Notes under the pieces: model-generated
Seen by the model: only the letters and a program-made list of their open reading frames with translations
The model's database searches: none
Told to the model about the DNA's origin: nothing
Made by a program: the position numbers and the translations under genes
Shown here: piece after piece, positions 6,745-18,884 of the stretch
Layout of the letters: each line of letters begins with the position of its first letter
How positions within the stretch are numbered: position 1 is the first letter of the stretch
IMG/VR virus record: IMGVR_UViG_2909251562_000002
Reading direction: 5' to 3' (one strand)
DNA from: a virus
Taxonomy: Duplodnaviria > Heunggongvirae > Uroviricota > Caudoviricetes
DNA: 28,381 bases

Positions 6745-7299
6745 TCAGAATTTATAACCAACACCAACGATGAACCCGTCAGTGCGCCAGTCGCCACTGC
6801 CGGAGCCTTCATAAGCGACATCAATGGCCACGGATTCGGTCGGGTTAAACTGCACGCCAGCCCCCCACGCCAGAGACGTGTTGCTGTGGCGACCGTCATC
6901 ACTTCCGGTCAGCACATCGTGCGTTTTCCCCTTGTTGTCAGTTACGCGGAGATAATCTCCGGAGAAAGTCGACACACGGCTGTAAGCCATACCCGCCATC
7001 GCATACGCGCTGAACCATTCATTCACGCGCACAGACGGCCCCGCCATTACGCTGAACCAGCGGTTACGAACGGAATCTTCATGCCAGCGGGTATCGCTGT
7101 AACGGGTCAGCTGGCGATTCTTGTCTCCTGCATAGCTGAATGACGTCACCATCCCCAGTGTGTCCGTAAACTCATAGCGGTATTTCACGTTAATCCCGTT
7201 CAGATCATCGCTGCCGGGAACGTTCGTCGAGGCATGAAGATACCCCGCGCTCAGCGTGGCCTGCTGCTCAGACGCCCATGCAGGCGCACCGGATACCAG
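6745..7299 (-). pseudogene. lom: lom (Ail/Lom outer-membrane protein), 5'-truncated: start codon and most of the signal peptide are missing
   Basis: Translation matches lambda Lom from ...VSGAPAWASEQQATLSAGYLHAS to the C-terminal GVGYKF; upstream in-frame residues diverge from Lom and hit a stop at 7333-7335. Confidence 0.85.
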
Positions 7300-7573
7300 T
7301 CCTTTCTCTCTTTCGGCTCCATACGGGATGGATCATGAACAGAGTCTGCTGCCTCATGCTTCACACTAAACAGGGCTGGCCCGACATGCTGCAGGGCGTA
7401 AACGGGGTTCCCCCTGACAGTCGCAGCCACAGGAGTGTTGGCCGCGAGAAGCCGTTTTTTTACTGTGTCCCGGTGAAGCCCAAAGGCCTCAGCGATTTTA
7501 AAAACACTCCAGTAATAAGCATCACCGATCCCGCTCACATTTGACATAAGCAACTCCATCTGGCAGGTGAAAA
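7300..7573 (-). pseudogene. Fragment of a Nu1-like terminase small subunit gene (about 90 N-terminal codons), fused to lom by deletion and separated from its ATG by IS66
   Basis: Segment ...YYWSVFKIAEAFGLHRDTVKKRLLAANTPVAATVRGNPVYAL has the layout of the lambda Nu1 N-terminal helix-turn-helix; the ancestral ATG is at 10282-10284 about 150 bp from the cos-like site. Confidence 0.45.
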
Positions 7574-7626
7574 GTAACCGGCTCATTTAAACCGTCTGGT
7601 CTGTTTCCTCCGGCTCTACAAAAATA

Positions 7627-8304
7627 ATGTCCATCATTTTTAATGGACACTATCGTATGAAACACCGGACCTGGATCACTGAAGCTTTACGTCTTCACTT
7701 TGAAGAACATTTACCCCGGGTTGTGGCCGGGCGTCGCCTGGGTGTACCAAAATCAACAGTTTGTAGTATGTTCGTGCGCTTTCGGAGAGCTGGCCTTTCG
7801 TGGCCTTTGCCCGCAGGCATGTCGGAGCAGGAACTTGATGCCTGCCTTTACGGACAATTTTCCACGGTACCAGTCGTACGTCCTGAAAGCACCGTTATAT
7901 CCGAAGCCCCCGTGGTAAAAAAACGTCCCCGGCGGCCCAACTTCCCTTATGAGTTTAAAATCGCCTTAGTGGAGCAGTCACTGCAGCCCGGAGCCTGTGT
8001 GGCGCAGATCGCCCGGGAAAACGGAATCAACGATAACCTGCTCTTCAACTGGCGCCATCAATACCGGAAAGGTGGCCTGCTGCCTTCCGGAAAAAATATG
8101 CCGGCACTGCTTCCCGTGACGTTAACGCCGGAGCCGGATAATAAAATCCCGGCCCCCGCACAGGAACCAGAGCAGATAAATACACCGTCCGACAGTCTGT
8201 GTTGTGAGCTGGTTCTGCCGGCCGGAACTCTCAGGCTTAAAGGTAAACTGACGCCGGCGTTATTACAGACACTTATCCGCGAAATAAAAGGGAGCAGCCA
8301 CTGA
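7627..8304 (+). CDS. IS66-family accessory protein TnpA (orf1), 225 aa
   Basis: C-terminal region (KIALVEQSLQPGACVAQIARENGINDNLLFNWRHQYRKG) is typical of IS66 orf1; stop overlaps the tnpB ATG (TGATG). An internal start at 7657 is possible. Confidence 0.75.
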   Translation: MSIIFNGHYRMKHRTWITEALRLHFEEHLPRVVAGRRLGVPKSTVCSMFVRFRRAGLSWPLPAGMSEQELDACLYGQFSTVPVVRPESTVISEAPVVKKRPRRPNFPYEFKIALVEQSLQPGACVAQIARENGINDNLLFNWRHQYRKGGLLPSGKNMPALLPVTLTPEPDNKIPAPAQEPEQINTPSDSLCCELVLPAGTLRLKGKLTPALLQTLIREIKGSSH

Positions 8305-8651
8305 TGATATCTCTCCCTGCAGGTTCGCGTATCTGGCTGGTTGCAGGTATCACCGATATGCGAAATGGCTTTAACGGCCTGGCATCAAAAGTTCAGAACG
8401 TCCTGAAGGATGACCCGTTCTCCGGACACCTGTTCATCTTCCGCGGACGCCGGGGTGACCAGATAAAAGTGTTGTGGGCTGACAGTGACGGACTGTGCCT
8501 CTTCACCAAACGCCTGGAGCGGGGCCGCTTCGTCTGGCCAGTCACCCGTGACGGCAAGGTGCACCTTACTCCGGCTCAGTTATCCATGCTTCTTGAAGGT
8601 ATCAACTGGAAGCACCCGAAACGAACGGAACGCGCTGGAATCCGCATATAA
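8304..8651 (+). CDS. IS66-family TnpB (orf2), 115 aa
   Basis: Conserved IS66 orf2 sequence (MISLPAGSRIWLVAGITDMRNGFNGL...). Confidence 0.9.
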   Translation: MISLPAGSRIWLVAGITDMRNGFNGLASKVQNVLKDDPFSGHLFIFRGRRGDQIKVLWADSDGLCLFTKRLERGRFVWPVTRDGKVHLTPAQLSMLLEGINWKHPKRTERAGIRI

Positions 8652-8670
8652 CCCGTTGTAAAGTGAGGAT

Positions 8671-10242
8671 ATGGACACCTCACTTGCTCATGAGAACGCC
8701 CGCCTGCGGGCACTGTTGCAGACGCAACAGGACACCATCCGCCAGATGGCTGAATACAACCGCCTGCTCTCACAGCGGGTGGCGGCTTATGCTTCCGAAA
8801 TCAACCGGCTGAAGGCGCTGGTTGCGAAACTGCAACGTATGCAGTTCGGTAAAAGCTCAGAAAAACTTCGTGCAAAAACCGAACGGCAGATACAGGAAGC
8901 ACAGGAGCGAATCAGCGCACTTCAGGAAGAAATGGCGGAAACGCTGGGTGAGCAATATGACCCGGTACTGCCATCCGCCCTGCGCCAGTCTTCAGCCCGT
9001 AAACCGTTACCGGCCTCACTTCCCCGTGAAACCCGGGTTATCCGGCCGGAAGAGGAATGCTGTCCTGCCTGTGGTGGTGAACTCAGTTCTCTGGGATGTG
9101 ATGTGTCAGAGCAACTGGAGCTTATCAGCAGCGCCTTTAAGGTTATCGAAACACAACGTCCGAAACTGGCCTGTTGTCGGTGCGACCATATCGTGCAGGC
9201 ACCAGTACCTTCAAAACCCATTGCACGCAGTTATGCCGGAGCGGGGCTCCTGGCCCATGTCGTCACCGGAAAATATGCAGACCATCTGCCGTTATACCGC
9301 CAGTCAGAGATATACCGCCGTCAGGGTGTGGAGCTGAGCCGTGCCACACTGGGGCGCTGGACAGGTGCCGTTGCTGAACTACTGGAGCCGCTGTATGACG
9401 TCCTGCGCCAGTATGTGCTGATGCCCGGTAAAGTCCATGCTGATGATATCCCCGTCCCGGTCCAGGAGCCGGGCAGCGGTAAAACCCGGACAGCCCGGCT
9501 GTGGGTCTACGTCCGTGATGACCGTAACGCCGGTTCACAGATGCCCCCGGCGGTCTGGTTCGCGTACAGTCCGGACCGGAAAGGTATCCATCCACAAAAT
9601 CACCTGGCCGGTTACAGCGGTGTGCTTCAGGCCGATGCTTACGGTGGTTACCGGGCGTTATACGAATCCGGCAGAATAACGGAAGCCGCGTGTATGGCTC
9701 ATGCCCGGAGAAAAATCCACGATGTGCATGCAAGAGCGCCCACCGACATCACCACGGAAGCCCTGCAGCGTATCGGTGAACTGTATGCCATCGAGGCAGA
9801 GGTCCGGGGCTGTTCAGCAGAACAGCGTCTGGCGGCAAGAAAAACCAGAGCCGCGCCACTGATGCAGTCACTGTATGACTGGATACAGCAACAGATGAAA
9901 ACACTGTCGCGTCACTCAGATACGGCAAAAGCGTTCGCATACCTGCTGAAACAGTGGGATGCACTGAACGTGTACTGCAGTAATGGCTGGGTGGAAATCG
10001 ACAACAACATCGCAGAGAACGCCTTACGGGGAGTGGCCGTAGGCCGGAAAAAGTGGATGTTCGCGGGTTCCGACAGCGGTGGTGAACATGCGGCGGTGTT
10101 GTACTCGCTGATCGGCACATGCCGTCTGAACAATGTGGAGCCAGAAAAGTGGCTGCGCTACGTCATTGAACATATCCAGGACTGGCCGGCAAACCGGGTA
10201 CGCGATCTGTTGCCCTGGAAAGTTGATCTGAGCTCTCAGTAA
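8671..10242 (+). CDS. IS66-family transposase TnpC (orf3), 523 aa
   Basis: N-terminal leucine zipper, CPACGG...C...CxxC zinc motif and catalytic region; ATG with GTGAGGA upstream. Confidence 0.9.
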
Positions 10243-10434
10243 ATATCAATACGGTTCTGACGAGCCGCTTACGGTGAAAATCATGTTTATTTATATATTT
10301 CAATTAATTGTAAACTGGTCTAATGACAGGGAGAAAAAAATATTGTACAGGTAAAAAGATAAATAACTTTTAATTATCAATAAATTACCAAACATGCTGC
10401 CGCCGCCATGGAAATGCAAAAACTAGCCTTTTTC

Positions 10435-10455
10435 CGCGACGCTCCCGCCCCGTGG
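10435..10455 (-). other. Candidate cos site (cosN-like) of the prophage
   Basis: Minus strand reads ACGGGGCGGGAGCGTCGCGG against lambda ACGGGGCGGCGACCTCGCGG (15 of 20, from memory); lies about 150 bp upstream of the Nu1-like ATG, as in lambda. Confidence 0.35.
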
Positions 10456-10630
10456 CAGGGGCCCCCACCGGGAGGACCCGACAGCCTGACAGCCGTGATG
10501 AGCATCTGATACAGCGCTTTACATAATGGCATAGGAATAATTCAGAAGGACATCACAGCATGCCCACACAAATTAGTGTGAGTGTCCTGTTTCTTCCTAC
10601 GCACAGGACTGACGAGCATGAGGGGAAAAT

Positions 10631-10798
10631 ATGCGAACCATAAATGCCTCATCTTCAGCAATGCAACCGGCATCCGAACAGGACGATATTGTAAATTCAC
10701 CTAATTACGAGGACATTGCAGTAGTTGAATTGCAGCTCTGTATTAGCCTGACAGTGACAGAATGCGATATTGACTCTGTCACAGGTGAAATAGTTTGA
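10631..10798 (+). CDS. Hypothetical small acidic protein, 55 aa
   Basis: Manual translation (MRTINASSSAMQPASEQDDIVNSPNYEDIAVVELQL...); GAGGGGA ribosome-binding site 5 nt upstream of the ATG. Confidence 0.35.
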   Translation: MRTINASSSAMQPASEQDDIVNSPNYEDIAVVELQLCISLTVTECDIDSVTGEIV

Positions 10799-12550: not shown

Positions 12551-12755
12551 TCATTTTCACTTTTTTAAATCCAACGACAGACGGCTGGCATTTAAGTATT
12601 GTGAAATATTATCAAATGTAATCATCATTGATTTACAAAAGATACATTTTGCCCCGAAAGGATTCATGTCAGAAACATCAAAAGATGATGTTCTATACTG
12701 GGAACCATGACAACACGGGCATCTAAAGTGAATATGGTTTGTAATATTGTCTACC

Positions 12756-12968
12756 TCAAAGCGCCACTACATGAACAGCGGCAGGACCTTTAGGTCCGTT
12801 CTCAATACCAAATTCAACTTCCTGATTCTCAGTTAATGTTTTGAAATCGTTGCTCTGAATTGCTGAGAAATGGACAAACACATCTTTGCTGCCATCTTTC
12901 GGCGTGATGAAACCAAAACCTTTTTCAGGGTTAAACCATTTCACTAAACCAGTCATTTTGTTAGACAT
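12756..12968 (-). CDS. cspI: Cold shock protein (CspA family), 70 aa
   Basis: [34 protein letters not shown] with RNP1/RNP2 motifs; matches CspI from memory. Confidence 0.9.
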
Positions 12969-13329
12969 AATTATTACCTTTTGAAGAAATTAGCCCTTGG
13001 GCAGAATGGTCCGAAAAAAATATCAGAGAGAAAAACCAACAAGGAAATCTCAAGAGGTACAAATAATAAAATTATAACAATGACTGCTTCAGATAAATTT
13101 GTAACAAACCAGAACACCATTAACGCATGATTAACCACCCATAGCAAGGATTACTTTTGTAAAGAAAAACACAGCAATGAAAGAATAGCTTTATTTATTA
13201 ATAAAACGTGTCATTCTGATTAAGACCTTTTATCTTACCCTTAAGATTTCAGGAATTTTGGCTCATGGAAGAGTCCTTTTTATTCAAATTTTACATTCCG
13301 CGATGTAAATGTTCCGATTTAATATTACC

Positions 13330-15356: not shown

Positions 15357-15638
15357 TGAGATTGTGGTGCTTTTTGTGGGAGTCATCCACTTACGCACTT
15401 TGTTTTGCCATGCCAGCAGTTAGCTTCTGCTGTAAAACTATTCATGCAGCAAACCTGCACTTCACCACAATGGTTAGCATACTTTTCCTGATTAAGATTT
15501 TGCCAAATATGCTAGCCATTGTTTCATGTATTGGACCTCCTTACTTTTTATTAAAGAGATCCAATATTCACTACTCTGTCCGTATCTCTACTCAGGCATC
15601 AGCCTTCTTCGTTATCGTATACAGACGAGCGATGAATT

Positions 15639-15854
15639 TTAATCAGTAATGATGACATTTGCTGCTGCAGGACCTTTAGCACCACTCTCTATAGAGAAGG
15701 TAACCTTTTGACCTTCAAATAAGGTTCGATAATTATCATTCTGAATCGCAGAAAAATGCACAAACACATCTTTACTACCATCAACAGGAGAAATAAAGCC
15801 GAAACCTTTATCAGCGTTAAACCATTTTACTAAACCAGTCATTTTATTTGACAT
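15639..15854 (-). CDS. cspB: Cold shock protein CspB, 71 aa
   Basis: [34 protein letters not shown]; long AT-rich upstream leader. Confidence 0.93.
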
Positions 15855-16154
15855 TCTACATTCCTTAACTTGAGCCTTTCGGCATAAATGGTTTGCATAA
15901 CAGAAACGACTTCGTACTTAATTGGAGAGACTCAAAGAAGGAATAAGTGAATAACACCTGAAATGAGAACTGCTTTAGTAAACTACTTCGTATATCGTCT
16001 GTTCTTCAAACCGACGCAATCATTAACGCATAGTTGAACATATGAAGCAATGTTTATTTTAGACATCCAGCCATCTTCAACCCCATCAAAAAACTATAGC
16101 TTTCTTCAGGAACGTGTGTATAGTGCGCCAAGTTATCAGTATTAAGGAATTTTT

Positions 16155-18605: not shown

Positions 18606-18884
18606 TTACCTCCAGATCCGTTGCTGGAAAGTGCGGGACGCACGTGGTGGGCGTTCGGAATAAGGCAGCCTGACAGAGATTATCCAGTGCCGATAGTCGA
18701 GACTGAGAGCTTTCTTAACCTCGAACCCGCGCCTGCGGTAAGAATGAATCAGCCATTCGGCCTGTTCTGCAGTGCATGGAGGGTGCTGGAACCATTCAGA
18801 CTTGAATGCGTGAGAATACCGCCCGTGCGTGCAGGCAAGAACGGGCGAATTATCAGAATTGTAATATTTTGCGTTGCGTGCCAT
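18606..18884 (-). CDS. Hypothetical protein, 92 aa, abutting the ydfU-like gene
   Basis: ORF track; identity not recognised; it or the next ORF may correspond to rem. Confidence 0.4.
   Translation of the reverse strand: MARNAKYYNSDNSPVLACTHGRYSHAFKSEWFQHPPCTAEQAEWLIHSYRRRGFEVKKALSLDYRHWIISVRLPYSERPPRASRTFQQRIWR

Follow-up and report, generated by a model that had tools for sequence, protein, structure and literature searches.

A complete ISCro1 element beside the small-terminase gene remnant of a Qin-like defective prophage of Escherichia coli

Results

The DNA analyzed here is the viral record IMGVR_UViG_2909251562_000002, a stretch of 28,381 nucleotides (nt) that we refer to as the window, and its positions 7574-10272 are occupied by a complete element of the IS66 family of insertion sequences (IS), 2699 base pairs (bp) long as read directly from the sequence, which we identify as ISCro1. 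On the plus strand the element begins with GTAACCGG and ends with CCGCTTAC. The octamer GGTGAAAA at 7566-7573 directly abuts the left terminal inverted repeat, GTAACCGGCTCATTTAAACCGT at 7574-7595, and at the right end ACGGTTCTGACGAGCCGCTTAC directly abuts a second GGTGAAAA at 10273-10280, the two octamers being the left and right copies of an 8-bp target-site duplication. The right terminal inverted repeat (10251-10272, reverse complement GTAAGCGGCTCGTCAGAACCGT) pairs imperfectly with the left one: a repeat finder reported a 22-nt pair with 77% complementarity, and 17 of the 22 positions match in an alignment. Both repeats start with 5'-GTAA (GTAACCGGCTC and GTAAGCGGCTC), and this start, like the length of the duplication, is what is expected of an IS66-family member.

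Between the repeats three genes lie consecutively on the plus strand, none of them with an internal stop, as is also expected for the family. The first, tnpA (7627-8304), encodes an accessory protein of 225 residues with an HTH_Tnp_1 domain at residues 102-159 (PF01527, E = 8.6e-15) behind a long N-terminal extension; its residues 13-206 match NF038385 (IS66_access_TnpA, E = 1.1e-88), and its DNA is identical to that annotated as WP_001339397.1. The second, tnpB (8304-8651), encodes an IS66 Orf2-like accessory protein of 115 residues (PF05717, E = 4.7e-40; NF033819). The product of tnpC (8671-10242) is a full-length IS66-type DDE transposase of 523 residues, which covers profile positions 1-283 of 284 of PF03050 (DDE_Tnp_IS66, E = 1e-102), matches NF033517 with E = 7.6e-143 and also carries the IS66 leucine-zipper, zinc-finger and C-terminal domains (PF13007, PF13005 and PF13817). 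The scores for the three NCBIfam models all exceed the curated cut-offs. The tnpA stop and the tnpB start overlap by 1 nt (TGATG at 8302-8306), suggesting that the two genes may be translationally coupled, and tnpC starts 19 nt past the tnpB stop with a GAGG 4 nt 5' of its ATG. TnpC contains the motifs HADD (256), QADAY (319), CMAHARR (341) and NNIAEN (445), which we take to hold the catalytic residues. A consensus scan of positions 7200-10700 found no sigma-70-like promoter, and terminator-like hairpins occur there at chance level (4 found against 3.8 expected); one of them combines the left inverted repeat with the duplication's T-run, and we attach no meaning to it. Neither within the IS nor at its borders did an Rfam scan detect an RNA family.

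The initial annotation of this DNA had described an IS66-family element with inverted repeats starting with GTAA, a perfect 8-bp flanking duplication, overlapping tnpA and tnpB and three intact open reading frames, and each of these features is borne out by the sequence and by the full-length Pfam and NCBIfam matches. When the element was compared with annotated copies, its complete sequence of 2699 bp proved 100% identical to numerous E. coli copies in which RefSeq calls the transposase "IS66-like element ISCro1 family transposase". An ISCro1 of 2699 bp, likewise flanked by an 8-bp duplication, has been described (PMC12115866), 24 ISCro1 copies have been reported from Citrobacter rodentium ICC168 (PMC3072379), and an ISCro1 insertion is reported to have lowered the activity of the afa promoter (PMC8764528). 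Judged by its sequence the element in the window is thus a known, common and well-described IS of the Enterobacteriaceae, and its insertion is a routine event.

Ends of the element and the empty site

The ends of the element were checked against 8 independent full-length copies from E. coli chromosomes and plasmids (L001-L006, L009 and L010 in our comparison set). It is clear from this comparison that the ends have been placed correctly, since the similarity to the window stops exactly at 7574 and 10272 in all eight. Five of the copies have perfect 8-bp duplications of their own (GGCCAGTC, CCTGGATC, TGATGTAG, ATTCAGAA and GGAGAACA). In L001 and L002, which are both on plasmids, the flanking octamers AGTTGGTC and GACCACCG are swapped, and the remaining copy has unrelated flanks. 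In the two plasmids, p67_83 (L001) and pTW11681_81 (L002), the flanks are exchanged (traD'/nuc' against nuc'/'traD) together with the octamers, a sign that two IS copies in opposite orientation have recombined and caused an inversion.

The initial annotation had also asked for an empty site in related genomes. An IS-less query, built from both flanks around one octamer, was compared with 5426 complete E. coli genomes, the set to which the genome counts below refer. The joined flanks align across the junction without interruption in 631 of these genomes, with identities of up to 99.9%, and in one of them (L007), which was read base by base, a single GGTGAAAA is found in otherwise colinear flanks, the site reading CTGGCAGGTGAAAATCATG. 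The octamers flanking the IS are therefore a real target-site duplication, and this duplication in turn supports the simple transposition that the initial annotation had proposed.

Position of the insertion relative to the small-terminase gene

To the left of the element lies the 5' remnant of a DUF1441/Nu1-like small-terminase gene, about 84 of its 175 codons, on the minus strand at 7293-7547, as supported by PF07278, PHROG 141, the pseudogene coordinates of the Prokaryotic Genome Annotation Pipeline (PGAP), the analysis of its start codon and the deletion junction described below. The remnant matches PF07278 with E = 1.4e-15, and a full-length relative matches PHROG 141, "terminase small subunit", with E = 7.9e-65. 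In intact relatives, with L007 as the example for the gene order, the DUF1441 gene (175 residues) lies directly upstream of the genes for the large terminase subunit and the portal protein. The family profile, the position before the large subunit and the position just downstream of cos all fit a small terminase, and the term "terminase-like" used earlier for the target gene was a fair one in view of the PHROG 141 match and the gene order. We take the gene to be of the NohA type, comparable to nohA of the K-12 Qin prophage.

The evidence places the start of this gene at the minus-strand ATG at 7547-7545, from which the protein begins with MSNVSG. A GGAG at 7557-7554 lies 6 nt upstream of this codon. 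PGAP uses the same methionine, both in genomes with the empty site and in the pseudogene of the window, and so does the annotation of phage Tritos, while the annotated starts in PSTCR8lys, a Providencia phage with a 65% identical protein, and in Aliivibrio phage H905 align with it. Relative to the start at 7547 the target site is situated 19-26 nt upstream, within the non-coding leader that separates cos from the small-terminase coding sequence, and we consider it practically certain that the insertion is not intragenic. The left flank keeps the coding start and the ribosome-binding site intact, and the tnp genes are oriented divergently from the terminase gene.

This placement differs from that of the initial annotation, which had the IS inserted one codon into the terminase-like gene. 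In that reading the start codon is the ATG at 10284-10282 and the IS interrupts the coding sequence after it, the start reading MIFTCQMELLMSNV; with the IS removed this ATG gives MIFTCQMELLMSNVSG. The ATG is indeed in frame with the MSNV methionine, 10 codons upstream of it and with no stop between them, both in the window and in L007. It is nevertheless very unlikely to be the start codon, since it is replaced by CTG in phages cdtI and Tritos, an in-frame TGA just upstream of the real start separates the two positions in PSTCR8lys, and no annotator has used it. It also lies in A+T-rich DNA without a Shine-Dalgarno sequence, in contrast to the MSNV methionine with its GGAG, and the similarity to distant homologues from Vibrio, Aeromonas and Aliivibrio (by tblastn for the Vibrio and Aeromonas phages) begins only at residue 9-13 of the extended reading, that is, at MSNV. 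Another objection, raised by the initial annotation itself, is that the true ends of the element could lie elsewhere and the flanking octamers could match by coincidence. We found no point in its support, and its probability is vanishingly small given the identical ends of the eight independent copies, an assembly contig (L042) that consists of the element alone with 2699 bp, and above all the single octamer of the empty site, which refutes it. With ends that are fixed independently, two abutting octamers would match at all eight positions by chance in about 1 of 65,536 cases; within the 28 kb of the window GGTGAAAA has only 3 occurrences, where 1.55 would be expected. Some observations do count against our own reading of an ISCro1 element inserted upstream of the gene. 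The depositors of cdtI placed the start 12 nt further upstream (MELLMSNV), from where the insertion would still lie upstream of the coding sequence. The name ISCro1 was taken from the RefSeq naming and from the published length and duplication size, and when species-representative genomes were scanned for an exact match to the 30 nt of the left end, the hits came from Escherichia and Citrobacter sp. ANG330, with none from C. rodentium.

A further question is whether the IS made the deletion next to it. From the terminase side the window resembles intact prophages down to 7294, and from the other side the similarity to lom extends to 7296. This overlap, 3 nt of microhomology (TAC), forms a junction at 7294-7296 where the small-terminase gene, broken at approximately codon 85, is fused to an internal part of lom; the Ail/Lom coding sequence called by PGAP (6745-7329, minus strand) reads across it. 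The deletion removes the genes for the large terminase subunit and the portal protein, and presumably the whole head-tail block. Junction and insertion are shared by the same five genomes (67-1, TW11681, WS1933D, S1-NGR-02-A and LR883000) and no others of the set and are thus linked in descent. One might therefore suspect that the IS caused the loss, either by deleting adjacent DNA or because two copies of it recombined. We regard such an origin as extremely unlikely. Between the IS end at 7574 and the junction there are 277 nt of normal terminase sequence, lom is joined directly to the terminase gene with no IS sequence at the junction, and both copies of the duplication are intact, which shows that the deletion is not a product of the IS. 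Recombination between IS copies would exchange their flanks, as in L001 and L002 on plasmids, and there the octamers are mismatched, unlike those of the copy in the window. The earlier statement that the IS is not the cause of the adjacent deletion accordingly holds. No genome in the set has either the junction or the insertion alone, and either event may have come first.

The surrounding prophage

The gene set of the window, together with the position next to ydfJ in near-identical genomes (99.94% identity over the shared stretch), assigns it to Qin, the cryptic prophage of E. coli, in a Qin-like defective lambdoid form. The set comprises IS2, ynfT, ydfK, pinQ, a tail fibre gene, lom, the DUF1441 pseudogene, ISCro1, gnsB, ynfN, cspI, rzpQ, rrrQ, ydfR, cspB and cspF, and it continues in the near-identical genomes with ydfT, ydfU, rem, hokD, relBE, dicC, dicA and dicB, as is characteristic of Qin. 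Rfam places the DicF small RNA at 22184-22235 and two cspA-type thermoregulator leaders at 12729-13113 and 15623-16015, upstream of cspI and cspB, all of which are expected for Qin.

Some smaller features of the region were noted as well. According to the annotation of near-identical genomes, ydfJ is truncated at the boundary of the prophage by a copy of IS2, and the window (positions 1 to about 1330) begins within this copy or at it. At approximately 10486-10495 there is an 8-bp tandem-copy polymorphism, with one CTGACAGC unit in the window against two in TW11681 and 67-1. In the ydfU region strain 67-1 has an IS1414 insertion of approximately 1.3 kb with an apparent 8-bp overlap, for which the window has the empty site at 18844-18851. 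The window would thus stem from a strain that is related to 67-1 yet distinct from it, and an origin from TW11681 or 67-1 themselves was rejected because of the 8-bp indel at about 10495 and the missing IS1414.

The cos leader and its conserved motif

The position of the insertion can be described more closely from the phage records that begin at cos. The cosN-like 12-mer GGGCGGGAGCGT at 10439-10450 (minus strand) is identical to nt 1-12 of the cdtI and Tritos records, and nt 1-450 of cdtI align with 97.8% identity to the minus strand of the window without the IS. Counted from the GGGCGGGAGCGT end with the IS removed, the target octamer occupies nt 171-178 and the terminase gene starts at nt 197. 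In lambda the left cohesive end GGGCGGCGACCT resembles GGGCGGGAGCGT, and nu1 starts at 191. From these positions, and by analogy with lambda, the IS lies where cosB would be.

On the gene strand the target octamer lies inside a conserved non-coding 10-mer, TTTTCACCTG, at -26 from the small-terminase start (window 7564-7573, minus strand). This 10-mer is kept at -26 in E. coli phages and in the Providencia phage with diverged flanks, whose small terminase is 65% identical. A second copy stands at -103 in cdtI and Tritos, and at this position the window has TTTTTACCTG (10349-10358, minus strand). One could speculate that TTTTCACCTG is a candidate terminase-binding site of the cosB R type and that the cos leader is a preferred ISCro1 target, perhaps as bent or protein-bound DNA, and we give this idea only a slim chance.

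Two further insertions in the same leader region were seen. The unrelated strain APEC E12049 carries an independent ISCro1 (L009, 3968-6666) in the same orientation and in the same cos leader, with the duplication ATTCAGAA, at a site that corresponds to window 10541-10548 and is 268 bp further from the terminase gene. In strain J6 (L010) this intergenic region holds a different IS with an ISCro1 nested inside it. The cos leader may thus be a local hotspot for ISCro1.

Distribution and activity

Places that cover at least 80% of the element were found in 1492 of the E. coli genomes and in 1397 PLSDB plasmids, the latter mostly from Escherichia, Shigella, Salmonella and Klebsiella. Copies with identical sequence are present at many different sites, on the chromosome and on plasmids of the same strains, and the insertion at the site of the window is confined to five closely related genomes. 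Together, the identical copies at many sites and the restriction of this insertion to one small lineage are good indirect evidence that ISCro1 has recently been active in these strains. The copy in the window is apparently functional and may still be active, as the initial annotation had suggested from its intact reading frames.

In the draft genome of Escherichia sp. MOD1-EC7003 (L017-L051) about 30 contig ends stop in the left end of ISCro1, which suggests a massive expansion of the element. The element is also present in two metagenome bins assigned to Segatella and Clostridiales (L022 and L042), one contig being exactly 2699 bp long, and these occurrences are probably binning errors.

Discussion

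Collectively, the data strongly support the following course of events. A full-length ISCro1 transposed into the octamer GGTGAAAA by the ordinary cut- or copy-and-paste DDE route, duplicating the octamer on the way. This octamer belongs to the non-coding leader that separates cos from the small-terminase gene in a Qin-like defective prophage, where the insertion cuts the remnant terminase gene and the downstream lom and tail-fibre genes off from upstream read-through. The head-tail morphogenesis block would have been lost, before or after the insertion, through an unrelated deletion, and because of this loss the insertion is probably neutral.

The significance beyond annotation is small, as we are dealing with a common IS in a defective prophage. 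What has been gained is a name and exact coordinates for the element, and the correction of a supposed gene disruption to an insertion upstream of the gene. In addition, the insertion together with the junction between lom and the terminase gene provides a clean lineage marker, common to only 5 of the 5426 complete E. coli genomes.

It remains to compare the locus with known systems. The geometry of the target region is similar to that of cos-Nu1 in lambda, with 196 nt from the 12-mer to the small-terminase start against 190 nt in lambda; the protein is of the DUF1441 family, unlike lambda Nu1 with a family of its own, and its gene is truncated at approximately codon 85 and joined to lom. The element shares its 2699 bp, the 8-bp duplication and the tnpA-tnpB-tnpC order with ISCro1, first named in C. 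rodentium ICC168. We detected no difference from ISCro1 copies, and only the insertion site is particular to the lineage of the window. ISEc8, an IS66-family element of E. coli O157 and its plasmids, shares the family and the DDE_Tnp_IS66 transposase and has just about 71% nucleotide identity over a part of tnpC. The nearest other named element is IS679, an IS66-family element of E. coli plasmids, with approximately 94-95% nucleotide identity over element positions 414-2699, a span that runs from the C-terminal half of tnpA through tnpB and tnpC to the right end, and in which the aligned copies are annotated "IS679 family transposase". The first approximately 413 nt, with the left inverted repeat and the N-terminal approximately 120 residues of TnpA, do not align between the two, and it is thus the replaced left end that distinguishes ISCro1 from IS679. 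In the window these element positions 1-413 correspond to 7574-7986, and the N-terminal approximately 120 residues of the unusually long TnpA (225 residues) that they encode match no Pfam family. Compared with IS679, ISCro1 looks like a mosaic element.

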